From: an uncultured Chloroflexia bacterium | Lineage (GTDB): Bacteria; Chloroflexota; Limnocylindria; Limnocylindrales; CSP1-4 | DNA: 64,000 nucleotides | Direction of reading: 5' to 3' | Assembly (NCBI GenBank): GCA_963716375.1 | Contig: OY970306.1 | Span: 1,137,220 to 1,201,219, forward strand | In this document: positions 4,310 through 40,601 of the stretch, piece after piece | Numbering within the stretch: position 1 is the first letter of the stretch | How the letters are laid out: each line of letters begins with the position of its first letter | Made by a program: the position numbers and the translations under genes | The notes under the pieces: model-generated | What the model saw: only the letters and a program-made list of their open reading frames with translations | Databases searched by the model: none | Told to the model about the DNA's origin: nothing

Positions 4310-4333
4310 CCCGACGAGCGAGGAGTCGAGTCC

Positions 4334-4639
4334 ATGTTCGGTCCCGGAAGCCGGTACGCAGGCCAGCCGATCGCGGTGTACGTCGACGCCGACGGCCGGC
4401 CGCGGGCCTACGTGACCCTGCGCGAGGTGCCCGCCGCGCGCGTCGTCCGGCCCGAGGACCCGATCCACATCGTGGCCGCCAACGATCGGCTCGACCGCGT
4501 CACGTGGCAGCACCTCGGCGACCCCGAGCTGTTCTGGCGGGTCTGCGACGCGAACGGCGCGCTCCAGCCCGACGAGCTGACCTCGATCGTCGGGCGGCGG
4601 CTCGTCGTGCCGCTCGACCCGCGGGCCGGCAACGGATGA
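4334..4639 (+). CDS. LysM/tail protein X-like eCIS protein
   Basis: MF...SRY start and HIVAANDRLDRVTWQHLGDPELFWRVCDAN LysM-like motif; AGGAG RBS. Confidence 0.85.
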   Translation: MFGPGSRYAGQPIAVYVDADGRPRAYVTLREVPAARVVRPEDPIHIVAANDRLDRVTWQHLGDPELFWRVCDANGALQPDELTSIVGRRLVVPLDPRAGNG

Positions 4640-5763: not shown

Positions 5764-5776
5764 GGAGGCGACGACC

Positions 5777-6484: not shown

Positions 6485-6487
6485 GGG

Positions 6488-6784
6488 ATGGGCAAGCTGA
6501 AAGCCGGCTCGATGGGCTCGCCGAACTCGGCCGGGACGCCGCCGGAGTTCGCGAATTCGCTCGCCGCTGCCATCGAGGATGCCTACTGGTCGGCCCTCCA
6601 GGCCGATGGCAAGGACCGGTTTGACCGGTCGTTGAACCAGGACTCCGATCGCGATCGGCGGCGGATCTTCGTCGCCATCGCGCAGGGCGTGATCGGCTAT
6701 CTCGACGCCAATGCCGACGCGTTCAAGGTCGTCGGCCCGGCCGCCATCGTGACCGGCGTCTCGATCGACGTCCAGACGTCATGA
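6488..6784 (+). CDS. Hypothetical protein (98 aa) between spike and gp25
   Basis: Fills the gap exactly, has a purine-rich RBS, and is ATGA-coupled to the gp25 gene. No PAAR motif. Confidence 0.7.
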   Translation: MGKLKAGSMGSPNSAGTPPEFANSLAAAIEDAYWSALQADGKDRFDRSLNQDSDRDRRRIFVAIAQGVIGYLDANADAFKVVGPAAIVTGVSIDVQTS

Positions 6785-7233
6785 CGAACCCGATCCTCGA
6801 CCCCGTCCTCGTCTCGACCGCCCGACCGGGCCCCCGTGCGTCGCTGACCCGGCCGGGGCCCGCGCGCCACATGGACGCCCCGTTCACGCTTGACGATCGC
6901 GGCCGGACCACCCGGGCCGACGACGATGAGCACGTCCGGGACCTGATCCGCGCCGTGCTGTTCACCGAGCCCGGCGAGCGGCCCAATCGGCCGGACTTCG
7001 GCTGCGCCCTGAAGACGATGGTCTTCCTGCCGAATTCGGACGCCCTCGCCGCCGCGATCCGGGTGCTGGTCCACGGGGCCCTCCAGCAGTGGCTGCCACT
7101 CGAGATCATCGTCGAGGCAGTCGAGGTCCAGGCCGTCGACGCGGAGCTGCGGATCGGCATCGTCTACCAGCGCCGGACCGACGGCACGCGGCATCAGGAA
7201 GTCCTCGTCCACCAGACGGGCGGCCCCGCATGA
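6781..7233 (+). CDS. GPW/gp25 family sheath-initiator baseplate protein
   Basis: HVRDLIRAVLFTEPGERPNRPDFGC signature; alternative start ATG 6871. Confidence 0.92.
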   Translation: MTNPILDPVLVSTARPGPRASLTRPGPARHMDAPFTLDDRGRTTRADDDEHVRDLIRAVLFTEPGERPNRPDFGCALKTMVFLPNSDALAAAIRVLVHGALQQWLPLEIIVEAVEVQAVDAELRIGIVYQRRTDGTRHQEVLVHQTGGPA

Positions 7234-15054: not shown

Positions 15055-15098
15055 GCGCGTCGCGCCACCCGCCATGCCCACCAGCCGAGGAGCCCGCC

Positions 15099-18000: not shown

Positions 18001-18620
18001 TCGGCGTGCTCTTCCGGGGTCCCTTCGGCAATGCGGAGGCCATCGACAACGAGGTCATCGGCCGGCCCGCCAGTGACGAGTCGACGTGGATCGCGATCCG
18101 GATCGATGACCCCGAAGACAAGCCGACCGCAGTCGAGATCGGGCAGCCGGCGCAGGCGTTCGTCCCGAAGGTCATGGTCCCGAAGCCATTCGGCGAGGTT
18201 GGCGGAGGAGCGAACGCCCCCGCGGCGGCAGGCCTGGCGGGCGTCAATGCCGGCTTCGTCGCGGAGCCCCATCGGGACGTGCCGCAACTGTTCGGGGTGC
18301 TCGCGGCGGTCCGCGGCAACACCGTCGAGGGCGGCGGTCGCCAGCCGGCGGTCCTCGTCAGGGTGCGGGGCAACGCGATGTTCAACGACAACCGGGTCCG
18401 CTATCAAAACGACGAGCGCAGGATCGCGGTCGAGATCGCCGCGGTGAGCGCACTCTTGAACGCGAACTACATCGAGCTCTCGACGCCGTTCGGGCTGGCC
18501 ATCAACGCGGACGTCAATCCGAATGCCGTCGCCACCTCGGGCAACGTCACGAATGGGGTGATCGTGGTCGCCGGCTCACTGCTCGGGTCGCCGTGGGACC
18601 TCCAGAATATCTCCGCGTAG
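15099..18620 (+). CDS. DUF6519 domain protein with C-terminal right-handed beta-helix (putative fibre/tailspike)
   Basis: GAGGAG RBS, MPGDYSR..QQGRVRLDA, GRAYVDGI, GGFRGIENRLYRVEIH, WSRDDAS, YWVFAAR; then GGTICLGPG and repeated IxxN beta-helix rungs. Confidence 0.85.
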   Translation: MPGDYSRRTYNPNRDTVGVYEQQGRVRLDANLNEFVDLIDRRLRATSLDTLGPAVVPVETPDGFAIAYTAGKLTIGSGRAYVDGIEIDNHGRSLDGFVDPGFEPRLEELRGRGPIPFDRQPYVPAAPSPFAPAAPGVGTYLAYLDVFHRERTWAEDASLLDPALYGIDTATRRQAVWQVRFHDLLGGAIDCSTPDSAIPNGWSAIVRPSAARLTTNAVGVPVSTDPCDIPPAGGFRGIENRLYRVEIHDPGAFGTATFCWSRDDASLASPVTSINGATIGIVRPGRDQVVRFATGDWVEVTDDDRELSGLPGHIAKVGPVDDVKSEMDLAPALPAAFATAVNPRVRRWDQRPATIGTLPVTAAPVVLEDGVQVTFTLDPAIAGGTFRTGEYWVFAARVADGSVEQLAAAPPVGPHHHIARLAVVDGGTHTVTDCRTKWPCPCGGDGGCDCDACVTANSHNSGAFTIQDAVTQVAARGGTICLGPGIFRLRRPVEITNANAVRIRGKGWTTIVITPGRKPAFVVQGCRQITIQDLTVLGSKRQILAEEAVKGTFSMAELGGTIAIGVANTIGMTVERCILFTAPVRPDRAPTLATLGVVVGLTVRECVIVGVVGIGNPLPTVSPGKHIAGMKLTGAQSSFAGSPSAVYGVGGELGASDREQYLSGRLLMAHWNVIDNLVAAGRAGVALLGAVVAAADNRFARNDLVALIDAGIAIATISLLGTMEIDDNIVASGGFGILCGTNTARITDNTVIGFPTGRLGSLGPVITTTTTTTIFPGHVCGEDIEIVDTWVTVNGPLNPSGIRTRAGIVVVDPLGLGARLRDIRIVGNDVNDVVGLGIAALSPVRRLLIDANHVVNVVAGGIVTVSLRSESVVISANVVERVRGADIDRGKEVVGLLAGSAWTTSSASLGLGAISVLRALRADAHDNIVNQVATSGGLALGITFVGVRSGRIVSNRVQAVGDDRGAAIGVLFRGPFGNAEAIDNEVIGRPASDESTWIAIRIDDPEDKPTAVEIGQPAQAFVPKVMVPKPFGEVGGGANAPAAAGLAGVNAGFVAEPHRDVPQLFGVLAAVRGNTVEGGGRQPAVLVRVRGNAMFNDNRVRYQNDERRIAVEIAAVSALLNANYIELSTPFGLAINADVNPNAVATSGNVTNGVIVVAGSLLGSPWDLQNISA

Positions 18621-18632: not shown

Positions 18633-19106
18633 ATGGAACCGAACGACAATCCGCGCGATGCGGGCTTCGACCTCGACATCGTCCTGCAGCAGATCCGCGA
18701 CGCGGTCGCGTCCGGTGACGGCCTCGTAGCGGGAATGACGGACGGTTCTGTCGCCCGGGCCGAGGAGCGCCGGCGGGCCGCATCCGCCGCGGCCGGCAAG
18801 GCGGGCGCCACCGCGGCGGATCGCGCCGCGGCCGCCACGGAGCGAACGGCGGCGGCCGACGAGATCAAGCAGGCGAAGTCGCTCGGCGAGGTCCATCGGC
18901 AGGTCCTGACGCTCCTCGGCGAGGACGCCCTGCGGCTCGTCCGCGGCCTGCCGACGGCAATGGCCTGGTCCGACGAGCCGACGATGGGGGAGGGGACCGC
19001 CAGGACGGCTCCTGGCGGCGCGTCTGCTGCCAAGGAGGGCGCGGCCAGTGCCCCGGCCGGGGGTGGCGTCAAGGCGGCGAAGCCCAGGGCGAACTCGAAC
19101 GGCTGA
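18633..19106 (+). CDS. Ala-rich hypothetical protein, last gene of the eCIS operon
   Basis: GGAGG RBS directly after the DUF6519 stop; predicted helical segment; no recognisable domain. Confidence 0.6.
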   Translation: MEPNDNPRDAGFDLDIVLQQIRDAVASGDGLVAGMTDGSVARAEERRRAASAAAGKAGATAADRAAAATERTAAADEIKQAKSLGEVHRQVLTLLGEDALRLVRGLPTAMAWSDEPTMGEGTARTAPGGASAAKEGAASAPAGGGVKAAKPRANSNG

Positions 19107-19204
19107 GCGGCTGTCGGTCCCCCGGAGCCGGCTCAACCCTGACGGAAGGACGCGTCCGATCGGCTACTCTCTCGGGGCGTCCGTCGGCCGAGGGAGCGAG
19201 TCCG

Positions 19205-22200
19205 GTGATCTGTTCGAACTGCGGAACCGAGAACAAGCCTGGTCGGAAGTTCTGCGTCCGCTGCGCCACGCCGCTCGCGGCGGCCTGCCCGTCCTGTGGC
19301 GCTCCGTACGACCCCGGTGACGCGTTCTGCGGCGAATGTGCCGCTCCGCTCGGCGCGGCCATCACCATGTCTGCCGCGGCAGTGCCGGTCAGGTCCAGTC
19401 CGACCGCCACTTCGGCCGCCGCTCCGGCCGTTCCCGCCAGCGCGGAGCGCCGCCTCGTCAGCGTCCTGTTCGCCGATCTCGTCGGCTTCACGCCATTCGC
19501 GGAAGAGCGCGACGCGGAGGACGTCCGCGACACGCTGACCCGCTACTTCGACATCGCCAGCGACGTGATCACCCGCTACGGCGGCATCGTCGAGAAGTTC
19601 ATCGGCGATGCGGTCATGGCCGTGTGGGGCACGCCCACGGCCCGAGAGGATGATGCCGAACGGAGCGTTCGGGCTGCCCTGGACCTCGTCGACGCGGTCC
19701 GTGCGATCGGCGCCACGATCCAGGCCCGGGCGGGCGTCCTGACCGGGGAGGCGGCCGTCACGATCGGCGCCACGAACCAGGGCATGGTCGCCGGCGACCT
19801 CGTCAATACGGCCGCCCGGCTGCAGTCGGTCGCGCTCCCGGGCACCGTCCTGGTGGGCGAAGCGACGATGCGGGCCGCCAGTGCCGCCATCGCGTTCGAG
19901 GAGATCGGCGAGCAGACGCTCAAGGGCAAGGCACTGCCCGTCGCCGCCTATCGGGCACTGCGGGTCGTCGCCCAGCGGGGCGGGGAGGGCCGTTCGGACC
20001 TGCCGGAGCCGCCGTTCGTCGGTCGCGACGAGGAGCTGCGCCTGCTGAAGGACCTCATCTCGACGTCTGGCCGCGATCGGCGCACGCGTCTCGTCTCGAT
20101 CACCGGTCCGGGCGGCATCGGCAAGAGCCGGCTCGCCTGGGAGCTCGAGAAGTACATCGACGGCATCAGCGAGACGATCTACTGGCACCGCGGCCGCTCG
20201 CCTGCCTACGGCGAGGGGATCACGTTCTGGGCCCTCGGCGAGATGATCCGCCGGCGGGCCCGGCTCACGGAGGTGGACGACGAGGCCGCCACGCGCGAAC
20301 GAATCCGCGCCACGGTCGCCGAGTACGTGCCCGCGGACGACGATCGGCGCTGGGTCGAGCCGGCGCTCTTGACGCTTCTCGGCCTGGAGCCCGCGCCGGC
20401 AGGCGGCCGCGACGTGCTCTTCGCGGCCTGGCGGATCTTCTTCGAGCGGATCGCCGAGCAGGGCACGACCGTGCTCCTGTTCGAGGATCTCCAGTGGGCC
20501 GACTCCGGCCTCCTCGACTTCATCGAGCAGCTCCTCGAGTGGTCGAAGAACGTGCCATTGACGGTGATCACCCTGGCCCGCCCGGAGCTGTTCGACCGGC
20601 GACCCGACTGGGGCGGGCAGACGCGCAACCTGACCCGCCTCGCCCTCGAGCCGTTGAGCGACGAGGCCATGCGCCAACTGCTCGACGGCTTCGTGCCGGG
20701 TCTGCCGGAGGCGGCGATCCGGGCGATTCTCGGCCGTGCCGATGGCATGCCGCTCTATGCCGTGGAAACGGTCCGTTCGCTCGTCGCGGACGGCCGGCTC
20801 GAGCGTCACGGCGACGCCTACCGGCCGATCGGCGAGCTCGGCGAGCTCGCCATTCCCGACACGCTCCGCTCGCTGATCGCGAGCCGGCTCGACGCCCTCG
20901 ATCCCGCCGATCGGAGCATCGTCGCGGACGCTGCGGTGCTGGGTCAAACGTTCAGCCCCGCGGCGCTGATGGCGGTGAGCGGCACTGAGCGCCGAGGCCC
21001 TGGAACCGCGTCTCAAGGCGCTCGTTCGCCGGGAACTGTTCGACGTGGAGATCGATCCGCGCAGCCCGGAACGTGGCCAGTACCGCTTCGTCCAGTCGCT
21101 GATCCGAGAGGTGGCCTACAGCACGCTCGCCAGGCGCGAGCGGCGCGCCCGGCACCTGGCCGCCGCCCGGCACTTCGAATCGCTCGGGGACGATGAGCTG
21201 GCGGGAGCTCTCGCATCTCACTACGTCGCCGCTCACGAGGCATCGGCCGAGGGCGCCGAGGCGGACGCTGTGGCGATCCAGGCACGGATCGCACTGTCGG
21301 GTGCCGCGGAACGAGCCGTCACGCTGGGCGCCCACGACCAGGCCGTCGCGTACTACCGCCAGGCGATCGAGATCACCGCGGATCCCGGCGAACGAGCGGC
21401 GTTGCATCTTCACGCCGCGGCCTCGGCGGATGCGGCCTCGATGTACGACCTGGCTGCCGAGCTGGTCCGAACGGGAGTCGAGCTCGCGCTTGCGGCAGGC
21501 GATACCGACGCACTCGGCGCCTGCGAGGCCCTCTACGGGGAGATCCTCATCGACTCTGGCCAGACGCTCGAGGCGGTCGAACTGCTCGAAGCGGCGGCGG
21601 CGCGACCGGCGGCGGCCATCGACGAAACCGTGATGGCCGAACTGCTCGGCAACCTCTCACGCGCCTATATGCGGGCGGGCCAACCGGCCAAGTCTGTCGA
21701 GACCGCGGACCGTGCGCTCGTGGTCGCCGAGCGGCACCACCTCGATCGGATCATCGCCGAGACGTTCAACAACAAGGGCTCCTCGCTGTCGTTCATGGGT
21801 CGCCAGCTGGAGGGAATCGCGCTGCTCCGGGCGGCCGTGGATCTTGCCCATGACCGCGGGTACGTCGCTGCGGAGATCCGGGCCCGCCAGAATCTCGCGG
21901 CCTCCATGGACGGCGATCCCAGGCTCGCCCGGGATCAGCTGGAGCTCGCGTTTGGCCTCGCCCGTCGGGTGGGGAACCGGACCCTGGCGAGCTGGACCGC
22001 CATCAGCCGGCTCTACTCGATCTATGGGGCGGCGGAGGGCTGGGATGCGGCGCTGGCCGACGTCGAGCAGGATCTTGTCGAGAGCGCCGCGATCGGCCTG
22101 AGCCCGCTGGACGAGCTGCGGAGCCTGCTCGGCCAGGCGATGATCCGCACCGCGCGCGGCGAGTCGACGGACGAAATGCTCGCGCGCATGACCGAGCTGG

Positions 22201-22772
22201 CGGACCAGACCTCGGATGCGTTCGGCGCAGCCGGAGTCGAGTTCGTGCGTGGTGATCGGGCGCTGCTCGCGGGCCGCTACGCCGAGTCCTGCAGCGAGAT
22301 GCTCGCGGGATCGACCGAACCCAACCTCGCCGAGCTGATGCTGGCGCGCGCCGGTCGGGCGGCCGTCTGGGGCCGCGATCATGCGGGCGCGGTGGATGTC
22401 GTCGAGCGGCTCGACGCGCACCCCGGCTCGGTGCGTTCAACGGTGGCCGCTCGGAGTGCCCTGCGAGCCGGGATCGCGGCTCTCGAGGGCCGGCGCGACG
22501 AGGCGATTGCGGCGTACCGCGACGCGGTCGGGCGATACCGCGCGGCCGGCGAGGACCTGGAGCTGGCCTGTGTCGGTCTCGACTTCGTGGCGCTCGTCGG
22601 TCCTGACGAGCCGACGGCCTATGCCGCGGCGATCGACTCGCGCGCGATCTTCGAGCGTGTCGGGGCCCGGCCCTATCTCGAGCGGCTCGACGCGGCGCTC
22701 GCGCGACCGTCCGCAGAAGGGTCGCGGCCGACAGCAACCGCGGCCGACCTCGTGTCGCCCACGGCAGGCTGA
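19205..22772 (+). pseudogene. Double zinc ribbon - class III adenylate/guanylate cyclase - AAA ATPase - TPR protein, split by one frameshift near 20984
   Basis: CSNCG..FCVRC..CPSCG..FCGEC; ERRLVSVLFADLVGFT, KFIGDAVMAVWG, GDLVNTAARLQ; GPGGIGKS Walker A. Removing one base in ggcactgagc (20981-90) joins the ORFs as ...SGLSAEALEPRLKALVRRELFDVEIDP. May be a sequence error. Confidence 0.85.
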
Positions 22773-29683: not shown

Positions 29684-29758
29684 TCCGGCGTAGCTCAGTG
29701 GTAGAGCGGGCGGCTGTTAACCGCTTGGTCGTAGGTTCGAGTCCTACCGCCGGAGCCA
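29684..29758 (+). tRNA. tRNA-Asn (anticodon GTT)
   Basis: Cloverleaf: TCCGGCG/CGCCGGA acceptor, GCTC/GAGC D arm, GGCGG-CTGTTAA-CCGCT anticodon arm, GTAGG-TTCGAGT-CCTAC T arm, encoded CCA. Confidence 0.98.
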
Positions 29759-30004
29759 CTTTCCCGAACGGGGGACGAACGGCTTGCCTTCGAACGGGCC
29801 TTCGGCGAGGCGGAGGAAGCCGAAGAACGCGATGGCGTCCGGCGGCGTGGGCGCAAGGTCCGCGCGTTTGGCATCGAGGCGCACACCGCGTTCAGCGCCG
29901 TGCCGAAGATCGTCGAGGTGACGCTGGCACGCGAGGCGGACGTACCGGTTGACGACGGTCTCGCCTGCTAGGACGGAGCGCGCGTAGGCGGCGACTGGGT
30001 CGGG
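29759..30004 (-). pseudogene. N-terminal fragment of phage terminase large subunit
   Basis: Not in the ORF track. Minus frame from 30001 reads DPVAAYARSVLAGETVVNRYVRLACQRHLDDL...AIAFFGFLRLAEGPFEGKPFVP, like HK97-type TerL N-termini, then runs into the tRNA. Confidence 0.75.
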
Positions 30005-30109
30005 CGGGGAGCCGTCGCGACCGGCTCCGCCGCTCTGACTCGGGCGAGTACCGACCCTGCCCGTCCGCTCACTCGCACTCGCGGACGGAGGGTGAGCAGG
30101 CCCACGACG

Positions 30110-30596
30110 TCAGCCCGTGCCGTCCAGGAAGTCGGCAAACGCATCGCGCTGCTCGCGCGGCTGTCCCGTCATCCCGGCGCGCGTCGATGGCGTGAGCCCG
30201 AGCTCGCGGGCGAACGCGCGCAGCAGATCTGCGTTGTCGCGGACGATCTGGTGAAGCGGGTTCTTGACGAGCTCGCCCTTCTGGCCGCGGACGAGCGGGC
30301 CCGACTGGTCGAGCATCCGCGCGGCGAACTTGTACCGCGCCGCTGCCTCGCAGTACGCCCGCTGCCTCGCAGTACGCCCGCAGGACCTCCGTGTCGGCGG
30401 CGGTGATGACGCCCGTCGCGCCGATGTCGCGCATCACCCTCCGCCACACCTGCGCCGCGGCCGTCGTGAGGTCGGCCGGCATCTTCGGGCGGTTGCTCGT
30501 AGGTCGCGGCTCGGCGCGGTTGAGGCGCGAGGGCCGTGTGTCGCCGCGCAGGACCTTGAGTCTCGTCGGGGTTCGCACGGGGCCGCGCGCGCCCAT
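30110..30596 (-). pseudogene. Phage terminase small subunit, P27 family, frameshifted by a 19-bp duplication
   Basis: MGARGPVRTPTRLKVLRG..LRAYCEA + KNPLHQIVRDNADLLRAFARELGLTPSTR; tandem CGCTGCCTCGCAGTACGCC at 30341-59 and 30360-78. Confidence 0.88.
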
Positions 30597-30749
30597 CAGC
30601 GTTGTCCTCGGCCGCGTCCTGCCCGCGGGCGGCAAGGTGCGCAGGTCACGGGCCATCCCACGGCACCGGCCGACGAGGCGGTCGCGCGTCGCACCCACAA
30701 GACTGATCGGGAACGTGCCATCCTGCACAGGCGAGAGGAGGGGTAGCGG

Positions 30750-31190
30750 ATGGCAGCCCCCACGAACGAGGAGCTCCTGCGTCGCTGGGCCGACGCGATC
30801 GCTGCTCAGGACGACGACGCGCTCGGTGCGCTGCGCCATCGCGACTGGACGATGGACTATCCCCAGTCCGGCGAACGCCTGCGCGGGCACGCGAACGATC
30901 GAGCGATGCTCGACAACTGGCCGGGCGGCCGACCGAGCGCTCAGCCACAGCGCGTCGTCGGCGCGGAAGACCGATGGGTTGTGACGCCGATGTTCACGGT
31001 CACCCGGGTCGTTGGCTCGGGCGACTTCTGGTGGGCCGACGGGACCCTGGCGTATCCGGATGGCTCGCGCTGGCTCTTCGCGGCGATGTTCGAGCTCCGC
31101 GACGGGAAGGTCCTGCGGGAAACGTGGTACTTCGCAGCGCCGTTCGAGGCGCCGGCATGGCGAGCGCAGTGGGTCGAGGCCATCAGCTGA
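30750..31190 (+). CDS. SnoaL-like / NTF2 family protein
   Basis: DYPQSGERLRG..N..AM, FELRDGKVLRETWYFAAPFEAPAWRAQWVE; GGAGG RBS. Confidence 0.9.
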   Translation: MAAPTNEELLRRWADAIAAQDDDALGALRHRDWTMDYPQSGERLRGHANDRAMLDNWPGGRPSAQPQRVVGAEDRWVVTPMFTVTRVVGSGDFWWADGTLAYPDGSRWLFAAMFELRDGKVLRETWYFAAPFEAPAWRAQWVEAIS

Positions 31191-32981: not shown

Positions 32982-33962
32982 ATGAAAGCAATCGTGTGTA
33001 CGGATTACGGTTCACCGGATGTTCTTCAACTCAGGAACGTGCCGAAGCCCGTTCCGAAGGACAACGAAGTGCTGGTTCGAATCCGCGCCACGACCGTCAG
33101 CGCGGCCGACTGCGAGCTTCGGCGGTTCGATTTCGCCCCGTGGATCTGGGTGCCGATGCGCCTGGCGTTCGGCATCCACCGGCCACGACGAGGCGTGCTC
33201 GGGCAGGACCTTGCCGGTGACGTCGAGTCGGTGGGCAGCGATGTCCGGTCGTTCCGGAAGGGCGACCGGGTGTTCGCGACGACGGGCATCGGGCTGGGTG
33301 CCTATGCGGAGTACATCTGCCTCCGCGAGAAGGCCCCGACCGGTGCGATCGCGACGATGCCGGCGAACCTCGGCTACGAAGACGCTGCTGCCGTGCCCTA
33401 CGGGGGAGGCGAGGCGCTGGGCTTCCTGCGGAAGGCGAACATCCGCAGCGGACAGAGGGTCCTGATCAACGGAGCCGGAGGCAGCTTCGGCACCTTCGCC
33501 GTCCAGCTCGCCAAGATCCTGGGCGCTCACGTGACTGCGGTGGACAGCGCGCCGAAGCTGGAGATGCTGCGCGAGATCGGTGCAGACCGCGTCATCGACT
33601 ACGCCACGGAGGACTTCACCCAGAGCACTGAGACCTACGACGTCATCTTCGACGTCGTCCGCAACACACCGTCCGGTCGCATGGTGAGGTTGCTGACCGA
33701 CAACGGATGCCTCCTGATGGCTAATCCGGGCTTCCTGCAGATCGTTCGCGCCAGATGGGCGGCGAGAGGGAGCAAGAAGCGGGTGTCCTTCGCGGCGTCG
33801 GGTCCAACGAGCGAGGACTTGGCCTACCTCCGGGGCCTGGTCGAAGCGGGACGGCTGCACCCGGTCATCGGCCGGCGCTTCCCGCTCGAACAGATGGTCG
33901 AGGCTCACCGGTACGCGGAAACCGGCCAGAAGCTGGGGAATGTGGTTGTCGTCGTCGCTTGA
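32982..33962 (+). CDS. NAD(P)-dependent MDR-family oxidoreductase
   Basis: MKAIV..YGSPDVL, GAYAEY, VLINGAGGSFGTFAVQLAK, GADRVIDY, EAHRYAETG. Confidence 0.92.
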   Translation: MKAIVCTDYGSPDVLQLRNVPKPVPKDNEVLVRIRATTVSAADCELRRFDFAPWIWVPMRLAFGIHRPRRGVLGQDLAGDVESVGSDVRSFRKGDRVFATTGIGLGAYAEYICLREKAPTGAIATMPANLGYEDAAAVPYGGGEALGFLRKANIRSGQRVLINGAGGSFGTFAVQLAKILGAHVTAVDSAPKLEMLREIGADRVIDYATEDFTQSTETYDVIFDVVRNTPSGRMVRLLTDNGCLLMANPGFLQIVRARWAARGSKKRVSFAASGPTSEDLAYLRGLVEAGRLHPVIGRRFPLEQMVEAHRYAETGQKLGNVVVVVA

Positions 33963-34475: not shown

Positions 34476-35457
34476 TCAGGAAGTCGCCGGGTCGACCGCA
34501 ATGACGACGGTTCCTCGCGCGTGCCCTGCCGCGACATGTCCAATCGCCCTGGGCGTCTCGCGCAGCGGGTAGGTGCCGTCGATCACCGGCGTGACCTTCC
34601 CGGCTTCGATGAGCTCCTTGAGGACCAGCAGGTCGGCCCGGTTTTCGGACTTGGGGGCGGGCTTGCCCTGCTGGCGCACGAACATCGACACGATCGCGAG
34701 CCGGATCACGCGGCCGAGCGCGCCGCCGGCGTGTCCTCCCCCGTTGGAGAGCAGCAACCCCTTGGGTGCCAACGCTCGCCGCGTCGCCCCCATGGAGTGG
34801 TCGCCCACGTTGTCGAGGATGAGGTCGTAGCGCGGTCCACCCTTCCGGAAATCCTCCTTGGTGTAGTCAATCACGTGATCGGCGCCGATCGAGCGGACCA
34901 GGTCCAGGTTCTTCGTACTGGTCACGCCGGTCACCTCGGCACCGAACGCCTTGGCGATCTGCACCGCGAACGTGCCGACGCCCCCGGACGCTCCGTTGAT
35001 CAGGACCTTCTGACCGGGCTGGAGATGCCCGTTATCGCGCAGGAGCTGGAGGGCGGTGGTCGCAGACACTCCGACGGCTGCAGCCTGCTCGAAGGTGAGG
35101 TTGGCCGGCTTCTGCACGAAGTGGTCCTCGCTCGGCTGACACGTACTCGGCGAAAGCGCCGGTGCACCAGCCAAACACGTCCTCGCCGGGGCGTAGCTCC
35201 TTCACGTCCTTGCCGACCGCCTCCACCGTCCCCGCGATGTCCGTCCCCGGAACGCGGTTCTTCGGCTTGCGCAGCCCAGTCGCCATCCGCATCAGGAATG
35301 GCGACCCCGTCATGACGATCACATCACCGACGTGGGCCGACGCTGCGTGGACGCGGACCAGGACATCACTCTCACCGATCTGGGGCTTCTCGATGTCCGC
35401 GGCCTCGAGGACCTCGGCCGGGCCATACTGATCTTGGACGATTGCCTTCATCGCCAC
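34476..35457 (-). pseudogene. Second MDR-family oxidoreductase, one frameshift near 35130
   Basis: ORF 35032-35457 (MKAIVQDQYGP..GAFAEYV) continues as EDHFVQKPANLTFEQAAA..INGASGGVGTFAVQIAK in the next frame. Confidence 0.88.
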
Positions 35458-35573
35458 GCCTCTCGATCCAGCCGCGTCGCGCGAGCGACGCGGCTACTCT
35501 CATTCGATTAAATCTTTGAGGGCGTGCTCCGAAGGAGCAAGTGCTGGACAGCCTGAAATCGTCATACCGAAGA

Positions 35574-35889
35574 TCACGCAGGGTCTGGCTGCCCGGTTAT
35601 GAGGGAGTGGATTGACGCGCGATACGCAACGATGTCCGTAATCCGGGGGTCCAGGGTCGGCACGACGAGCCACCCCGCCGCGCAACCGGCGTAGATCAAC
35701 TGCTCCGTCGTCAGGCCCGACCTGGCCCGCAGATCGGCGAGGTGTCGTTTGACAGTTCCGGGGCGAAGGTCGACAAGCGCGGCCGCTTCGGCGACCGATC
35801 CGCCCGCCCTTGACGTAGGCTGTCAGCGCGTCAACCTGACGCCGCGTCGCTCCGCGCCTGATGGCGCCGCGCAACTTCTGGTCGCTCAT
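35574..35889 (-). pseudogene. Small LuxR-like HTH protein, frameshift near 35808
   Basis: ATRRQVDALTAYVK joined to AGGSVAEAAALVDLRPGTVKRHLADLRARSGLTTEQLIY after removing one G. Confidence 0.65.
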
Positions 35890-35919
35890 GCCGATCGCGT
35901 GAACGCCGCAGCGAGCCAC

Positions 35920-36312
35920 TCATCGCGGCCTTCGATCGGGATTCGGTAGGTTGTAATCCCGCGTCTGACTCCTGTCGGGCGCGCCATCAAGAGGCCGCGT
36001 TGCCGGGCTGGCCGCGCGCGCCCCGCGCGAGTAGTTGCAGCGGGCGCAGGCCGGCACGAGGTCGGCGAGCGTGCCGCCCTGGCTGAACGGCACGGCGTAG
36101 TCCGCCGTCGTCGCGGGGGCACCACACCAGCGGCAGGGCAGTCCCAACAGCGTGGCGCGGACCCTGTCGTACTCGGCACGGTGACCGCGGCCTTGCCGAG
36201 GAATGCCGCGGTGGTTGCGCGGCGAGACTCGGTAGTGGTTGGCGCAGCGCGGCCCGGGTTGGCGCTCTCGGCAACCGGGCTCGAGGCAGACGCGGAGCGG
36301 CGCGATCGGCAC
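35920..36312 (-). CDS. Phage HNH endonuclease-like protein 2
   Basis: CLEPGC..RCANH, CRWCGAPATTADY, LVPACARCNYSRG; the catalytic DH appears as DY. Confidence 0.8.
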   Translation of the reverse strand: MPIAPLRVCLEPGCRERQPGPRCANHYRVSPRNHRGIPRQGRGHRAEYDRVRATLLGLPCRWCGAPATTADYAVPFSQGGTLADLVPACARCNYSRGARAASPATRPLDGAPDRSQTRDYNLPNPDRRPR

Positions 36313-36518
36313 TACCGGCTGGCGCGAGTCTTCGCCGCTTCTCCCGCTGCGATCTGGATCGACGCCGTGTTCGCGATGAGCGCGACGATCGCCCTGGCGA
36401 GCACGTTGAGCCCGGCGATCTGGCCCGTGTCCAGATGGATGATCGCCAGGAGCTGCAGGGCGTTGATGAGCGCCGTCACGGCACCGAGGACCAGATTCGG
36501 ACTGCGGCCGAAGATCAC
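36312..36518 (-). CDS. Putative holin
   Basis: 68 aa, MIFGRSPNLVLG start, two hydrophobic segments, basic C-terminus, phage context. Confidence 0.65.
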   Translation of the reverse strand: MIFGRSPNLVLGAVTALINALQLLAIIHLDTGQIAGLNVLARAIVALIANTASIQIAAGEAAKTRASR

Positions 36519-37252
36519 AGTGCGTCTCCCTTCACGTCAGCGGTCGACCAGGCGTCGTGCAAGGCGGGAGTCAGGTAGCGCCACGGGAACCACGCGTTGC
36601 CGTTGATGCCCCAGGAGCGGGCCCAGCTGTTGCGGATCAGCGCGGATCCACCAGGGCCTACCGCGTCGTCGTAGCCGAAGACGTAGATCGCGTGGCCGCC
36701 CTCGACGATCCCCGATCGGAGCCGGCATGACGCCGTCCACCGGCCGGAACCAGGCGCGGTCGAATCGAATCGCGATCCAGACCGGGCCGAACTGGACGAG
36801 GGCACGCTTGATGGCGTCCTCGGTGAACGGCACGGCCCAGTACGAGGCGATCCGGAAGCGGGACTCACTGCCGTGCTGACCGGAGAGCGGCTGGCCTTCC
36901 TTCGCCAGCACCTGGAGGGCCGCCCGGATCGTCGTGCCGCGCTGCGGGCCAGGCGGCGTCGGGATGCCGTCGATCGCCTCGGCGTGCTCGTAGAGCCACT
37001 CCGGATCAAGGGGCGGCCAGCCCTCGGCCAGTCGCCGTCGGAGCGTTCCTGCTGCTGGCGCACGCCGGTGCCAGTGAACGCTACGCAACGGCCGGTGTTG
37101 CCCTGGTTGATGGGCGGTGCGAGCAGCTTGAGGCGGAACGCTGGCGGCAGGCAAGCGGCGGTGTCGAGATGGTCGGCCAGCATGAGGTCGCGCGGGTCTG
37201 GCGGACTCGGATGGGCGCCGAGCAGGTGCGGCCCAAGGACCAGACGAGCCAT
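36515..37252 (-). pseudogene. Papain-like C1 cysteine peptidase with two compensating frameshifts (~37022, ~36715)
   Basis: PDPRD, NQGNTGRCVAF (Gln/Cys), GTTIRAAL, FGPV, GGHAIYVFGYDD (His), IRNSWARSWGING (Asn). Confidence 0.85.
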
Positions 37253-37464
37253 CAGTGATGGCCAGCCCAGAACGCAACGATCGCGAGGACCGAGACGGCT
37301 GCCGAGAGGATCGACGCACCCATGGCGAGCTTGGTCAGGGCCATCGCGCCTCGGAGTTCGCTGCGCCATTCCAGGAGCGAGTCGAGCTTCTTGTCGTGGT
37401 CACGCAGCATCTCGGCCACGGTCAGGGCCGTGCCGCCTCCGCTGCCGACGTCAACGGGCGTCAC
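37252..37464 (-). CDS. Small coiled-coil plus C-terminal transmembrane phage protein
   Basis: LRDHDKKLDSLLEWRSEL followed by one hydrophobic helix; stop overlaps the peptidase start. Confidence 0.6.
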   Translation of the reverse strand: MTPVDVGSGGGTALTVAEMLRDHDKKLDSLLEWRSELRGAMALTKLAMGASILSAAVSVLAIVAFWAGHH

Positions 37465-37807
37465 GCTGGGAGGCCCGGCGGGCAGCCGGACACTGCGTGA
37501 GCCGTGCCTGGCTGCCGATCACCTACGCGCGAGCGAAGCCACATCGGCTCCGACGGTAGCTGCGAGGTTACCGCTCGCCTACTACCGCAAATCGTGGGCA
37601 CGGCTATCGCGTGCCCTTGCCCGGCATCCCCAACTCCCGCAGTCAAGCCATCAAGTCGCTTGAAGGTCGAGTGCGACTTCGCGGACCCGACAAGACGCCG
37701 AATGGCCCTCCGAAGTCGTGACCCCCGGCCGTGGGACGCCTCAGCCGGCGCTGAGATGCTCACCCTGCCCTGAATTGATCGGGCAGGAGCTTATCGGGAG
37801 TCGAGCC

Positions 37808-38011
37808 ATGTTGTGCCATGAGTGCGCCCGTGACGGTCTATCGCAGCCGGCCGTTGCGCACTGTCGCTTCTGCTTGGTGGGCCTGTGCAAGACGCACCTC
37901 GTCGCGGCCTTCCAGTCGGCGACGGTGCCGCAGTACGCCTGCGACCATCATCCGGAGTGGCCGTTCCCCGAGACCGTCCGGACGCCGAAACCCGTCCGGG
38001 TTGCCGCCTGA
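37808..38011 (+). CDS. Small Cys-rich zinc-finger protein (DUF2180-like)
   Basis: MLCHEC...AVAHCRFCLVGLCKTH; GGGAG RBS; coupled to arsR. Confidence 0.7.
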   Translation: MLCHECARDGLSQPAVAHCRFCLVGLCKTHLVAAFQSATVPQYACDHHPEWPFPETVRTPKPVRVAA

Positions 38012-38373
38012 TGGCCAGCGCGGCACCGCTGACCGGCACAGCGGTGCGGTCAGCCCTCCCAGTCGTCTGCGAACCCCGTCTCGATCTGGTGGCGCCCGAC
38101 GTCGCCGAGGCGGTTGCCGTCGCGGCGCTCTTGGCGGACCGGACACGTTCATCGATCCTGGCGATGCTGGCTGATGGTCCGACGTGTGTGTGCGAGCTGG
38201 CGCAGGCATTGGGCGAGCGCGAGAACAACGTCAGTAACCACCTCGCCCGGCTGCGCGAGGCAGGCCTCGTGCGGGCCAGTCGCCACGAGGCGAACGCACG
38301 CTTCCTCTACTACGAGCGCGAAGAGGCGGCGGTCGCTGCCGCGCTGGCCGCGCTGGCCGACGTCCTGCGATGA
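38011..38373 (+). CDS. arsR: ArsR family metalloregulator
   Basis: LADRTRSSILAML..TCVCELA..NVSNHLARLREAGLV; the CVC As(III)-type motif is present. Confidence 0.88.
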   Translation: MASAAPLTGTAVRSALPVVCEPRLDLVAPDVAEAVAVAALLADRTRSSILAMLADGPTCVCELAQALGERENNVSNHLARLREAGLVRASRHEANARFLYYEREEAAVAAALAALADVLR

Positions 38374-38864
38374 CGAACGGCGTCGCGTCGGCCTCGGCTG
38401 GCGCACGTGTCGGCCGTCGGAAGCGTGCGGCACAGCCGGTCTACCTGCTCGACGTCTCGGCCGGCCCGGGTCGCCGAACGACGGCCAGCGGTGCCCTCTG
38501 GACCGGCGTCCTCAACGCAACGCCCGACGACGACATCGACGGCCCTTCGCCGATCGAAGCCCTTCTCGCTGCGGTCGCCGCCTGCTTCGTCCGCAACCTT
38601 TGGTCAGTCGCCGAGAGCGCGCACATCGTCTTCGAGGGGGTCGAGCTGCGCCTTGCCGCCGATCGCTCTGACGACCCGCCTGCCGTCACGGCGATCCGGC
38701 TCGAGGCCGACCTTGCGACGGAGGCCCCGGTCGCGACGGCCACTCGCGTCGTGGGGCTCGCCCTGCGGTACGGCACGATCACCCGGACGGTGGCGCGCGG
38801 CGTGGCCTTCGACGCCCGGGTCCGCGTGAATGGAACTCCCATCGACTTGTCCGATGTCCGTTGA
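38370..38864 (+). CDS. OsmC-like protein
   Basis: [15 protein letters not shown] motif; RYGTITRT where the second Cys is usually found. Confidence 0.8.
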
Positions 38865-38889
38865 TCGGCGGACGAGAGAGGAAGCCCGA

Positions 38890-39993
38890 ATGGCCTCCGA
38901 GATCACCTACCCGCCCGAAGCCCCGGCACGGAGCGGCGCCCGACGCCTGTCGTTCCTCGATCGCTACTTAACCCTGTGGATCGTCGGGGCCATGGTCCTC
39001 GGCGTCGCGATCGGCTACTTCATCCCTGCGAGTGAGTCCGTCATCAACGGGTTCTCGGTCGGGACAACGAACGTCCTGATCGCCGTCGGCCTGATCCTGA
39101 TGATGTATCCGCCGCTCGCCAAGGTCCGCTACGAGGAGCTGGGCGACGTCTTCCGGAACACCCGCGTGCTGGGCCTCTCCCTCGGCCTGAACTGGGTGAT
39201 CGGGCCGATCCTGATGTTCGTCCTCGCGATCGTCTTCCTGCACGACTATCCGGAGTACATGGTCGGCCTGATCCTGATCGGTCTCGCGCGCTGCATCGCG
39301 ATGGTCATCGTCTGGAACGAGCTGGCCAAGGGCGACACGGATTACTGCGCCGGGCTCGTCGCGTTCAACAGCCTCTTCCAGGTCCTGTTCTACAGCGTCT
39401 ACGCCTGGTTCTTCATCACGATCCTGCCGCCGCTCTTCGGCCTCAGGGGCATCGTCGTCAACGTCAGCATCACGGACATCGCGAGCAGCGTGTTCATCTA
39501 CCTCGGCATCCCCTTCATCGCTGGGCTGCTGACGCGGTACGTGCTGATTCGGCGGCGCGGCCGGGAGTGGTACGAGCGGGTATTCATCCCTCGGATCAGC
39601 CCCATCACCCTCGTCGCGCTGCTGTTCACGATCGTCGTGATGTTCAGCCTCAAGGGCAACCTCATCGTGTCGATCCCCCTCGACGTCGTCCGGATCGCGA
39701 TCCCGCTGCTGATCTACTTCGTGGTGATGTTCCTGCTCAGCTTCTGGCTCAGCCACCGGATCCGGACGGACTACCCCAAGAGCGCCTCACTCTCGTTCAC
39801 GGCCGCCAGCAACAACTTCGAGCTGGCCATCGCGGTCTCGGTCGCCGTATTCGGGATCGGTTCAGGCGTGGCGTTCGCCGCGGTGATCGGACCGCTCGTC
39901 GAGGTCCCCGTACTGATCTCGCTCGTCAACGTCGCGCTGTACTTCCAGCGCCGCTACTACGCAGGTTCGCCGGTCGTCGGGGCGACGGCCTGA
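38890..39993 (+). CDS. acr3: Acr3 family arsenite efflux transporter
   Basis: [55 protein letters not shown]. Confidence 0.96.
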
Positions 39994-40028: not shown

Positions 40029-40268
40029 TCACGACGCGAGTTGGTCAAGCTCCTCGTGGCGGCGATAGCCCGCCTGCGCCTCATCGACGCAGCCGCAGCG
40101 CTCGAACAGACGGGCGAGGTGCCACCGCACTGTCTCGTGGCTGGTCCCAAGGACCGCGGCGGCCTCCTTGCGCGATCCGGTCTCGCAGCGAGCGCGCAGT
40201 ACCTCGAGCTGGCGTGGAGTAGGGGAGCGGGTAGCGCGTCCGGGCGGTTGCGTGCTGGTCGGCATCAC
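40029..40268 (-). CDS. Small LuxR-like HTH protein next to attR
   Basis: PTPRQLEVLRA..SRKEAAAVLGTSHETVRWHLARL. Confidence 0.7.
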   Translation of the reverse strand: MMPTSTQPPGRATRSPTPRQLEVLRARCETGSRKEAAAVLGTSHETVRWHLARLFERCGCVDEAQAGYRRHEELDQLAS

Positions 40269-40326: not shown

Positions 40327-40373
40327 GGCTGTTAACCGCTTGGTCGTAGGTTCGAGTCCTACCGCCGGAGCCA
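40327..40373 (+). repeat. attR: 47-bp exact copy of the tRNA-Asn 3' part (29712-29758)
   Basis: GGCTGTTAACCGCTTGGTCGTAGGTTCGAGTCCTACCGCCGGAGCCA at both sites; the 5' tRNA half is absent here. Confidence 0.96.
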
Positions 40374-40601
40374 TTTCATGAGGAAGCCCACACCGGGTCC
40401 GCGTGGCTGACGTCGACCTGGATGGGCGTTTCAACTCGTGCCGGACCGGCGGAATCCGTCAACTCGTCCCGGACCGATCGCGCTCATCCCTGGGGCCGCT
40501 ATCAACCGAACTAGGTGATGTCGCGGCGCGCGCGTTGCCTGTATCGTCCGCGTTCGATCCCGGACGGACCGCCGCCCAGCGTGAAGATGAGGGAGGAACT
40601 C

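Follow-up and report, generated by a model that had tools for sequence, protein, structure and literature searches.

Four genes lie end to end on the minus strand of the window (the whole 64,000-nucleotide stretch of DNA analysed here). Read along this strand, the first, taken from the ORF list, encodes a 70-aa tail-anchored membrane protein (37252..37464). The second is a C1A peptidase pseudogene (36515..37252, with its ATG at 37252 and its stop at 36515), delimited from ORFs and homologue alignments, and the third encodes a 68-aa protein with two transmembrane (TM) segments and a predicted holin-like character (36312..36518; defined by its ORF and hydrophobic segments). The fourth, an HNH endonuclease gene (35920..36312), was recognised by a match to phrog_144. 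The 70-aa gene overlaps the peptidase gene by 1 nt (TGATG), the peptidase gene overlaps the 68-aa gene by 4 nt (GTGA) and the 68-aa gene overlaps the HNH gene by 1 nt (TAGTG). The original prediction had described three overlapping genes, one of them encoding a peptidase with Gln, Cys, His and Asn motifs, upstream of an HNH gene, and all four genes were recovered in this arrangement. The lysis-cassette-like layout that it had proposed was also apparent: in a phage-derived element, a leaderless enzyme gene adjoins and overlaps small membrane-protein genes, upstream of the HNH and small terminase genes, and the same pairing is present in a related prophage (L001, see below). A scan of positions 35400-38000 yielded no promoters or terminators. 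The HNH ORF matched the HNH family phrog_144 with an E-value of 1.8e-8, and the Pfam families HNH_5 and HNH weakly, under the cut-off. The 3' tail of this gene overlaps a serine-recombinase fragment derived from the C-terminus; positions 35908-35987 are 91% identical to positions 12552-12631 of a related Chloroflexota locus (L002), where they form the end of a recombinase-like ORF.

Seven intact homologues of the peptidase were identified (239-254 aa, about 240 aa; E-values of 4e-68 to 6e-45). All seven passed the Pfam cut-off for PF00112 (35.1 bits against 20.7 for the homologue P0001), whereas the broken ORF of the window reached 15.5 bits, under that cut-off. The three pieces into which the window gene is divided nonetheless matched the family HMM with E-values of 1e-39, 3e-62 and 1.5e-30. 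Residues Q49, C55, H186 and N207 (numbered on the reading of the window gene) do not vary in alignment A1; in the 60 sequences of alignment A4, the catalytic Q, C and H are likewise constant, with the N at least 90% conserved. The best solved relative was PDB entry 3OIS (profile E-value of 3e-43 over positions 4-227, including the N-terminal motif region), which has been named xylellain (PMC5542433). Next among the PDB sequences searched were cathepsins K, L and S, with E-values of about 1e-23 to 1e-18. The homologue E-values, the seven PF00112 matches and the invariant catalytic residues place the earlier assignment to the papain family far beyond chance, and these sequence features identify the enzyme as a genuine C1A peptidase of that family, predicted to be a leaderless, prodomain-less short form of the xylellain type. 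PF00112 was the only domain detected in the cassette enzyme, with no recognised peptidoglycan-hydrolase domain. A tblastn search of the phage collection with the broken 284-aa ORF gave no match; family members were found with intact P0001 as the query.

The peptidase gene of the window has no uninterrupted reading frame. Residues 1-76 and 182 to the end share one reading frame and residues 78-181 occupy a different one, with catalytic Q49 and C55 in the first piece and H186 and N207 in the last. By hand count from the alignment, the three pieces are identical to intact P0001 at 62/76, 93/104 and 52/57 positions. On the minus strand, the first frameshift is the loss of one A from the Lys77 codon (37021..37027, near 37024), visible as a single-base gap in the DNA alignment to L002. 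The second frameshift adds one G within a G4 run (plus strand: C4; 36710..36713), at which the original frame is restored, as judged from the frame switch relative to P0001 between residues 181 and 182. The two 1-nt frameshifts compensate, but about 104 central codons are out of frame, and the window copy is therefore a pseudogene, inactive as sequenced. In the comparison with L002, dN/dS ranged from 0.15 to 0.24, also when the stretch that has fallen out of frame was considered, with a value of 0.24 for the 70-aa gene, suggesting purifying selection.

The 68-aa protein has hydrophobic segments at residues 9-27 and 34-52 and a basic C-terminus; 21 homologues were found, and the family was aligned (A3). 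Fourteen of the 19 members of this family compared with PHROGs matched phrog_9752, annotated “holin”, albeit weakly (E-values of 2.6e-4 to 0.05), and a search of the Atlas through the homologue P0008 led to viral clusters, with Phage_holin_9 and Phage_holin_10 at 0.87 and 0.86, as leads only. The protein had no Pfam or NCBIfam holin match, and hhalign comparison of its family with the annotated holins beside the proteases of Gordonia phages Morgana and GMA2 gave probabilities of less than 1%, indicating no relationship. Its segments and weak matches are consistent with a holin-like protein.

The 70-aa protein has a single, C-terminal hydrophobic segment (residues 46-64), preceded by a conserved N-terminal soluble helix region, and its 12 homologues, including the window's own protein, share an invariant core in alignment A5. 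None of the five members scanned had a Pfam match, only one of 13 matched a PHROGs family, of unknown function (E-value of 0.028), and the window protein had no PADLOC or NCBIfam match. The family aligned with CDS92 of Alicyclobacillus phage MMB025 over 26 columns (hhalign probability of 72%, E-value of 3.4e-5). The 70-aa protein is possibly a lysis regulator or a second holin-like component. Its identity as XhlA (PF10779) was considered and rejected, none of five members matching at E≤0.05. MMB025 CDS92 itself gave an E-value of 0.013 against XhlA, under the cut-off.

The cassette is located within a decayed prophage integrated at a tRNA-Asn gene. Repeat comparison identified, on the plus strand, an attL-like copy of a 50-nt repeat (29712..29761) at the 3' end of tRNA-Asn (29684-29758) and an attR-like copy (40327..40376) that is 98% identical, the two enclosing a 10.6-kb island. 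The phage origin of the island is supported by these att repeats at the tRNA gene, together with the small terminase and HNH genes, and by the prophage nature of the L001 relative. The small terminase subunit gene (Terminase_4/P27 type; 30069..30890, minus strand) is also a pseudogene, with profile positions 1-34 in one frame and 28-95 in another, and a 19-nt tandem duplication (30340-30377) lies where the two frames meet. The zinc-type dehydrogenase of the island is likewise broken and split across two frames. No terminase large subunit, portal, capsid, tail or integrase gene was found in the six-frame scan of the island (99 ORFs of at least 70 aa between 29760 and 40380, searched against Pfam at E≤1e-3), and none of these 99 ORFs matched the peptidoglycan-hydrolase families sought (amidase, lysozyme, muramidase, M23, CHAP and NlpC/P60). 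The previous statement that the island contains no amidase, muramidase or M23/CHAP gene is correct, yet it carries no weight, because the island is a 10.6-kb remnant without structural genes.

One scan of genome contigs for the close family yielded two loci from 34 pattern matches. The first, L001, which covers contig DATJWM010000191.1 except for 2.5 kb and 16.7 kb at its ends, is a Mycobacteriales prophage with an integrase and with large terminase, portal, MuF and capsid genes in a module downstream of the peptidase; a homologue of the 68-aa protein directly follows the peptidase (E-value of 6.5e-22). No peptidoglycan hydrolase domain was detected in the 26 ORFs scanned over its 20.7 kb, which end at the capsid. 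The second, L002, is a locus from a Chloroflexota metagenome-assembled genome (MAG), in which a homologue of the 70-aa protein is paired with the peptidase, and is the sole DNA-level relative found. Homologues of all three proteins share the longest-contig value of 6746, and homologues of two of the three share the values of 4502, 19811 and 3678338. The linkage between peptidase and small membrane proteins that had been postulated is thus conserved in L001 (peptidase and 68-aa protein), in L002 (70-aa protein and peptidase) and in the matching contig values, and the end-to-end overlap of the peptidase gene with small membrane-protein genes is conserved across phyla. An intact paralogous locus (P0001/P0031) is probably present elsewhere in the same genome.

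More distant members of the family were found in cultured phages, and lysis cassettes accounted for six of the 11 contexts inspected, which were hand-picked from match lists and do not constitute a random sample. The members in these lysis contexts matched the A4 profile with E-values of 1e-39 to 5e-23. In Gordonia phages, Lilbeanie gp40 (E-value of 5e-24) is flanked on one side by the lysin A genes and on the other by the holin gene, and Morgana gp30 and GMA2 Orf38 are also encoded in lysis cassettes, as is Mufasa8 gp26 (E-value of 5e-23) in an Arthrobacter phage. In Thermoanaerobacterium phage THSA-485A, the C1A domain of Tsac_2838 (E-value of 1.3e-39) adjoins a GH25 lysozyme. In MMB025, the C1A domain (E-value of 1.9e-28) is part of a 753-aa endolysin, fused to Rv2525c_GlyHyd-like and PG_binding_1 domains, and CDS92, the protein resembling the 70-aa family, is encoded three genes upstream. 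This search of the phage collection bears out the expectation that C1 peptidases occur beside holins in phages. A conventional peptidoglycan hydrolase was also encoded in all six lysis cassettes with a family member, these being distant members, and was fused to it in one. Genes annotated “cysteine protease” were present in 56 records of the phage collection. In phage BetterKatz, a “cysteine protease-like” gp29, which may be of the C1 or of a C39-like type, has been named as one of two endolysin functions (PMC4982276). Domain fusions above the Pfam cut-off were detected in 11 of 76 long representatives of the family: Cu_amine_oxidN1 (6), SH3_3 (2), SLH (2) and SPOR (1).

The remaining five contexts (Circinus, Sycamore, Barnyard, RAS14 and FLC9) were not lysis cassettes. 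In Circinus and Sycamore, the protease gene occupies the terminase/HNH junction and has no membrane-protein neighbours; the order is terminase, protease and HNH in Circinus, and integrase, tRNAs, protease, HNH and a small-terminase-like gene in Sycamore. In Barnyard-type mycobacteriophages, the protease gene is among the right-arm genes. The RAS14 and FLC9 contexts were uninformative; jumbo phages of Gram-negative hosts have the protease gene in unannotated surroundings. The position of the window copy, upstream of the HNH and small terminase genes, is closer to that in Sycamore than to a tail-proximal lysis cassette.

Taken as a whole, these findings lead us to favour, with moderate confidence, a decayed copy of a lysis-associated envelope-protease module, accessory to a conventional hydrolase. 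The module would then be an understudied accessory and not a new way of lysing cells. In intact relatives, it would act late in infection, when the small membrane proteins would permeabilise the cytoplasmic membrane and so let the signal-less protease reach the cell envelope; the 68-aa protein would serve as a class-II-like holin, with the 70-aa protein as its partner or regulator. At the envelope, the protease might cleave wall peptides or proteins, either the stem or bridge peptides of peptidoglycan or wall-anchored or S-layer-type proteins, a protein target of the latter kind being possible. The protease would probably work with, and not instead of, a conventional peptidoglycan hydrolase whose gene lies elsewhere in the phage genome.

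Several other explanations were weighed. One concerns the state of the gene: both frameshifts might be assembly or sequencing errors at short homopolymers, the gene being intact in the organism. The affected sites do lie in short runs (AA and G4), the shifts compensate each other exactly, dN/dS is still 0.15 in the stretch now out of frame, and the 70-aa and 68-aa genes are intact. We nevertheless consider such errors improbable, given that the small terminase of the same island is split at a tandem duplication, which is no homopolymer error, that the dehydrogenase is split across two frames, that the flanking dnaG, rpoD and eCIS genes, all of them long, have unbroken reading frames and that the island is plainly stripped of most of a phage genome. 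The suggestion that the trio and the HNH gene form an anti-phage defence or abortive-infection module of the prophage draws on the location of the module in a mobile island and on the occurrence of protease and membrane-protein combinations in some defence systems. PADLOC gave no matches for the 70-aa or the 68-aa protein, or for the peptidase in its broken or intact form, and only weak generic matches for the HNH protein; with no PADLOC-DB component model matched, this suggestion was rejected as scarcely credible. A non-lytic protease is doubtful. On this view, the enzyme could be an accessory, cytoplasmic or acting in some other way, encoded near packaging genes and serving the processing of phage or host proteins, host takeover or receptor destruction after lysis, with unrelated flanking membrane proteins acting, for example, in superinfection exclusion. 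The family members of Sycamore and Circinus without membrane-protein neighbours, the right-arm location in Barnyard-type phages, the unannotated surroundings in jumbo phages of Gram-negative hosts, the position of the window and L001 copies upstream of terminase genes and the lack of a signal peptide are all compatible with such a role. Against it stand the tight overlap, end to end and conserved across phyla, of the protease gene with two genes for small membrane proteins, the six lysis cassettes among the 11 contexts inspected, the physical fusion of the C1A domain to a glycoside hydrolase and a peptidoglycan-binding domain in MMB025, and the wall-binding fusions in other relatives of the protease.

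According to the original prediction, the protease would replace the endolysin: released by the holin, it would be the sole lytic enzyme of phages of peptidoglycan-free or protein-walled Chloroflexota and would digest an S-layer or protein envelope. Several observations can be read in this way, in that no peptidoglycan hydrolase domain was detected in the island or in the 26 scanned ORFs of L001, C1A peptidases can act on S-layer proteins, as illustrated by Cwp84 of Clostridioides difficile, SLH domains are present in two of the 76 long relatives and the only DNA-level relative found is from a Chloroflexota MAG. The absence of a hydrolase from a remnant without structural genes is, however, meaningless for this reading, and L001 ends before any tail-proximal lysis cassette. 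No mur or pbp domain was detected in the ORFs scanned within the 64-kb window, a result that carries no weight for a whole genome. The close peptidase family also occurs in a prophage of Mycobacteriales, which possess peptidoglycan, all six informative cultured-phage cassettes carry a conventional hydrolase besides the protease, and members of the protease family are fused to PG_binding_1, SH3_3 and SPOR domains. Since these data, together with the pseudogene state of the window copy, speak against replacement of the endolysin, we regard this part of the prediction as unlikely to be right, less firmly so for the close family. We also give a low probability to the broader proposal that, in intact relatives such as P0001/P0031, the C1A protease and its two membrane partners constitute a lysis system that is sufficient in itself, in phages infecting soil Chloroflexota and Actinomycetota, and that breaches a protein-rich wall layer, in which case C1A proteases would be an unrecognised lysis-cassette class degrading envelope proteins and not peptidoglycan or lipids. 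If true, this proposal would account for the “cysteine protease” genes in the 56 phage records.

The window copy is dead, and its worth is as a pointer to the protease family and to the intact paralogue. Known phage lysis enzymes act on peptidoglycan or, in the case of lysin B, on mycolyl-arabinogalactan esters. A recent report on lysZ describes an enzyme acting on membrane-anchored glycopolymers (PMC13123898). Many actinophages have a cathepsin-like C1A protease in their lysis cassettes, and in the window such a protease forms a compact module of three genes together with membrane proteins of its own. If such a protease degrades an envelope protein layer, it would represent a new substrate class for phage lysis and a novel enzyme type with which to open protein-rich walls or S-layers. 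No functional test of such an enzyme was found in the literature on phage C1A or lysis proteases.

Comparison with known systems places the window family between several precedents. Xylellain of Xylella fastidiosa resembles cathepsins and cleaves ordinary peptide substrates, which gives no pointer to peptidoglycan as the target. It resembles the window enzyme in its Gln/Cys/His/Asn set and in its short, single domain without a cathepsin-type propeptide, but it is a chromosomal bacterial protein without a lysis context, whereas the window family is phage-borne and encoded between two small membrane-protein genes. Acquisition of xylellain-type C1A peptidases by Caudoviricetes has been described (PMC10380794). 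The cassette proteases of the actinobacteriophages Lilbeanie, Morgana, GMA2 and Mufasa8 are, like the window family, leaderless; they have about 215-225 aa, and their genes directly precede that of a holin or follow that of a membrane protein. They are, however, only about 24-26% identical to P0001, they occur together with lysin A and lysin B genes and lie after the tail genes, whereas the window copy lies before the HNH and terminase genes, and the holins of these cassettes, as compared by hhalign for Morgana and GMA2, are unrelated to the 68-aa family. MMB025 and THSA-485A share with the window module a C1A domain of the same family in a lysis setting, but they differ in their Bacillota hosts, in the presence of a conventional glycosidase and in their multi-domain proteins, as opposed to a stand-alone 240-aa protein.

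Among enzymes that act on the envelope, Cwp84 of C. difficile processes SlpA, and its role is in S-layer maturation, not in lysis. It constitutes a C1A precedent for action on an envelope protein, but differs in that it is a host enzyme, is secreted and carries both a propeptide and wall-binding repeats. It is described as an S-layer-associated, cathepsin-L-like protease (PMC4089489). Papain-fold domains of clan CA are also known from endolysins, such as CHAP and the NlpC/P60-like N4 and C39-like N5 domains of mycobacteriophage Lysin A, which are released by holins and cut wall peptides (PMC3314691, PMC10318531). These known endolysin cysteine peptidase domains are of the C51, C40 and C39-like types, whereas the window family belongs to C1, and no C1 member cutting peptidoglycan was found in the literature searched. 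For the small membrane proteins, the nearest likeness, by TM count, is to the two-component holin-like system of LysF1a and LysF1b in mycobacteriophages, proteins with two and one TM segments, respectively, both reported to be needed for efficient lysis (PMC13056207). The window module similarly pairs a two-TM with a one-TM protein, although the TM segment is N-terminal in LysF1b and C-terminal in the 70-aa protein.

Four abutting ORFs lie on the minus strand of the window (G+C content of 70.2%), with consecutive overlaps of 1, 4 and 1 nt (TGATG, GTGA and TAGTG), and the three overlapping genes followed by an HNH gene were therefore present as originally predicted. The first ORF (37464-37252) encodes a 70-aa protein with one C-terminal hydrophobic segment (residues 46-64, by a simple hydropathy scan). 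The peptidase ORF begins with an ATG at 37252 and has its stop at 36515; it is followed by an ORF (36518-36312) encoding a 68-aa protein with hydrophobic segments at residues 9-27 and 34-52 and then a basic tail (hydropathy scan), and by a 130-aa HNH ORF (36312-35920; phrog_144, E = 1.8e-8, below the Pfam cut-offs). The 284-aa ORF spanning the peptidase gene matched the Pfam papain family C1 model PF00112 weakly (15.5 bits, cut-off 20.7). Seven intact homologues of this ORF, of 239-254 aa, were recovered (E = 4e-68 to 6e-45), all of which passed the PF00112 cut-off, and alignment with them showed Gln49, Cys55, His186 and Asn207 to be invariant, which confirms the predicted C1 peptidase with Gln/Cys/His/Asn motifs.

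The peptidase belongs to C1A, and the gene in the window is a pseudogene. Alignment and frame-by-frame comparison with P0001, one of the intact homologues, placed residues 1-76 and 182-238 in one frame and residues 78-181 in another (93 of these 104 residues identical to P0001, by hand count); both frames matched phrog_16701 (“peptidase”), on consecutive parts of the profile. Near 37024, a single A has been lost from the Lys77 codon, as judged from the DNA of a related locus from a Chloroflexota MAG (L002), and an extra G is present in a G4 run at 36710-36713 (sequence and comparison with P0001), both on the minus strand. These two frameshifts compensate for each other, and the long ORF therefore survives. 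Relative to L002, the 70-aa gene had a dN/dS of 0.24, and the peptidase gene had values of 0.17 over codons 1-76 and 0.15 over codons 78-157, which are now read out of frame. It follows that the damage is recent or, possibly, that the assembly is in error. The copy of the cassette in the window is dead.

The cassette is carried by a 10.6-kb island of prophage origin, bounded by a 50-nt direct repeat (29712-29761 and 40327-40376, 98% identical), the first copy of which is the 3' end of a tRNA-Asn gene (29684-29758). The small terminase gene (Terminase_4, 30069-30890) is split over two frames, and a perfect 19-nt tandem duplication (30340-30377) at the position at which the match changes frame is probably the lesion that broke it. 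A zinc-type alcohol dehydrogenase/quinone reductase gene (34476-35457, minus strand), with ADH_N and ADH_zinc_N in different frames, is apparently a further pseudogene, and an intact zinc-type dehydrogenase paralogue is present at 32982-33962 (plus strand). The long genes outside the island (dnaG, rpoD and the eCIS genes) have uninterrupted frames, which argues that the breaks arose by local decay and not from noise throughout the sequence. The island also contains a second HNH-like ORF (called by eye and from one weak NCBIfam IscB/HNH match), SnoaL-like, DUF6326 and DUF2180 genes, and genes for ArsR (37885-38373), an OsmC-like protein (38370-38864) and an ACR3-type (SBF) transporter (38830-39993), such that phage remnants are mixed with arsenic-type genes. 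All 99 stop-to-stop ORFs of at least 70 aa in the six frames of the island were scanned, and none matched a peptidoglycan hydrolase family. The statement that the island has no amidase thus holds, but it is empty as evidence, because large terminase, portal, capsid, tail and integrase families were equally unmatched among these ORFs. A small LuxR/sigma-70-region-4-type HTH protein is encoded by an intact copy (40029-40268) and a degraded copy (35500-35919). This small protein recurs in L002 (13310-14086) and in L001, a locus from a Mycobacteriales MAG (7301-7552), and may be the regulator of this phage group.

Separately from the island, very large genes are clustered at positions 1-18620 of the window and encode an eCIS_core domain (3-3653), a Phage_base_V/VgrG-like domain (5756-6484) and a DUF6519 domain (14241-18620); this cluster resembles an extracellular contractile injection system. 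Next to it, at 18719-22772, an ORF with a double zinc ribbon, an adenylate/guanylate cyclase domain and AAA_16 precedes a TPR ORF that overlaps it in a different frame. This looks like a large signalling ATPase, the gene for which is either split or just overlapped by a long high-GC ORF.

The linkage of the peptidase to the two small membrane proteins is conserved. A single genome scan reduced 34 pattern matches to two loci, L001 and L002. In L001, an intact 248-aa peptidase is directly followed by a homologue of the 68-aa protein (E = 6.5e-22); a tyrosine integrase, the small regulator and several membrane-protein ORFs lie upstream, and a large terminase, portal, MuF, protease/scaffold gene and capsid-sized ORF lie downstream. 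No homologue of the 70-aa protein was found in L001. No peptidoglycan hydrolase domain was detected in the 26 ORFs scanned (the GC3-selected ORFs of 689-20712 minus the peptidase, plus some smaller ORFs around it) of this locus, which stops at the capsid. L002 has 83% DNA identity to 37437-36787 of the window and encodes an 88-aa homologue of the 70-aa protein, followed by the peptidase, which a recombinase-like ORF (10671-12653; called by eye, with no match in NCBIfam) truncates after about residue 178. The last ~30 codons of the recombinase-like ORF are 91% identical at the DNA level to 35987-35908 of the window, where its remnant (35886-35990) overlaps the 3' tail of the HNH ORF. As this recombinase end is shared and the deletions differ, the two elements seem to derive from one prophage type through separate deletions. 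There were 21 homologues in the 68-aa family and 12 in the 70-aa family, including the window's own protein. A longest contig of 6746 was common to matches of the peptidase and both small proteins, one of 4502 to peptidase and 68-aa matches, and one of 19811 to the two small proteins. The window's 70-aa protein (P0029), a second 70-aa protein with 81% identity to it (P0031) and the intact peptidase P0001 had a longest contig of 3,678,338 bp in common, which suggests that an intact paralogous cassette is present elsewhere in the same genome.

In the 68-aa family, 14 of 19 members matched phrog_9752 (“holin”), but weakly (best E = 2.6e-4). An Atlas search with P0008, a homologue 94% identical to the 68-aa protein, provided leads to unnamed Chloroflexota and viral clusters (0.93-0.95) and to Phage_holin_9/10 clusters (0.86-0.87); there was no profile similarity between this family and the holins of Morgana and GMA2. 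The 70-aa family matched nothing in the profile libraries searched. Its juxtamembrane helix aligned with CDS92 of Alicyclobacillus phage MMB025 (72% probability, E = 3.4e-5, 26 columns), a C-terminally anchored coiled-coil protein encoded three genes upstream of a C1-containing endolysin; the similarity of CDS92 to XhlA (E = 0.013) was below the cut-off. Tsac_2842 of Thermoanaerobacterium phage THSA-485A has the same build in a hydropathy scan.

A profile of the seven homologues retrieved 45 cluster representatives at E≤1e-30, 2052 at E≤1e-10 and 15,851 matches, including ordinary cathepsins, at E≤1e-3. Most of the best 150 representatives are 225-265 aa long and their domain begins within about 10 residues of the N-terminus, leaving no leader and no propeptide. 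A hydrophobic segment was detected in 16 of 149 (hydropathy scan), several being C-terminal anchors. Among the 76 of these 150 with lengths of about 300 aa or more, 11 had a C-terminal module that passed the Pfam cut-off (SH3_3 in two, SPOR in one, SLH in two and Cu_amine_oxidN1, common in envelope proteins of Bacillota, in six); the other 65 had no recognised extra domain, one more SH3_3 falling below the cut-off. The best solved relative was 3OIS (E = 3e-43, full length), identified as xylellain in PMC5542433. The horizontal acquisition of short xylellain-type C1A peptidases by Myoviridae and Siphoviridae is reported in PMC10380794, and it is therefore already published that tailed phages carry this family.

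Searches with tblastn yielded 36 phage records at E≤1 for P0001, and 56 at E≤1e-5 for Lilbeanie gp40, mainly from phages of Mycobacterium (20), Gordonia (15) and Streptomyces (15) and in many cases bearing the annotation “cysteine protease” or “peptidase”. Homology was confirmed with a profile of 60 sequences of the wider family for THSA-485A Tsac_2838 (1.3e-39), the N-terminus of the MMB025 endolysin (1.9e-28), Lilbeanie gp40 (5.2e-24) and Mufasa8 gp26 (4.9e-23). Six of 11 contexts, a non-random set hand-picked from the two lists, were lysis cassettes. Lilbeanie has a lysin A C39 domain, a lysin A glycosidase, a hypothetical gene, the cysteine protease, a holin, membrane proteins and lysin B; Morgana has the same layout with an amidase, and GMA2 has lysins, protease and holin. 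C1 peptidases next to holins are thus present in these three phages, and the Gordonia cassettes resemble the window and L001 in having membrane-protein partners. Mufasa8 has a membrane protein, an M23 lysin A, a hypothetical gene, a 3-TM membrane protein and the protease; THSA-485A has a GH25 lysozyme and then the C1A peptidase; and MMB025 has a single 753-aa protein combining C1, an Ig-like domain, an Rv2525c_GlyHyd-like domain and PG_binding_1. Gene order is identical in the last two, both Bacillota phages (MMB025, 3798-7739; THSA-485A, 3898-7347): C-terminally anchored coiled-coil protein, HNH or HNH-like gene, wall hydrolase and C1A peptidase, N-terminal-TM protein. An HNH gene is unusual within a lysis cassette, and that of THSA-485A was called by eye.

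The wider family thus recurs both within lysis cassettes and fused to domains that bind or degrade the wall. The original prediction of a holin-released protease replacing the endolysin in a peptidoglycan-free Chloroflexota host is not supported, because every informative relative retains a conventional peptidoglycan hydrolase (all six lysis cassettes) and the close family is also present in a Mycobacteriales prophage (L001); for the close family, represented here by incomplete prophages, it keeps a low probability. A non-lysis role of the protease is a serious rival: in Circinus (terminase, small ORF, peptidase, small ORF, tRNAs, HNH) and Sycamore (serine integrase, tRNAs, cysteine protease, hypothetical gene, HNH and an ORF resembling, by eye, a small terminase subunit), the gene lies at the packaging junction without membrane-protein neighbours, and its position in Sycamore resembles that in the window and L001. 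The Barnyard context also points this way, although it was, with those of RAS14 and FLC9, uninformative as to lysis. A defence role of the module has no support, the three cassette proteins matching no PADLOC model. We infer that intact modules work at lysis and that their membrane proteins give the leaderless protease access to the envelope. Fusions to PG_binding_1, SH3_3, SPOR and a glycosidase would favour a wall target, possibly the peptides of peptidoglycan; the C1A fold, the cathepsin-like specificity of xylellain, the SLH fusions and the precedent of Cwp84 would favour a protein target.

Among open-access papers and preprints, none was found that tests what a C1A or xylellain-type protease does during phage lysis, and the word “cysteine” is absent from a survey of Gordonia lysis cassettes (PMC9671378). 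The papain-fold domains of Lysin A described in PMC3314691, N4 and N5, are different ones, and PMC4982276 assigns an endolysin function, without a test, to the “cysteine protease-like” gp29. A holin-like pair with two and one TM segments acts in F1-cluster mycobacteriophages, as shown genetically in PMC13056207, but its 1-TM protein is anchored N-terminally, unlike the C-terminally anchored 70-aa protein. What stands apart from these systems is a probable cysteine-peptidase lysis module in which the catalytic domain is of the C1A type and the enzyme has two membrane partners of its own.
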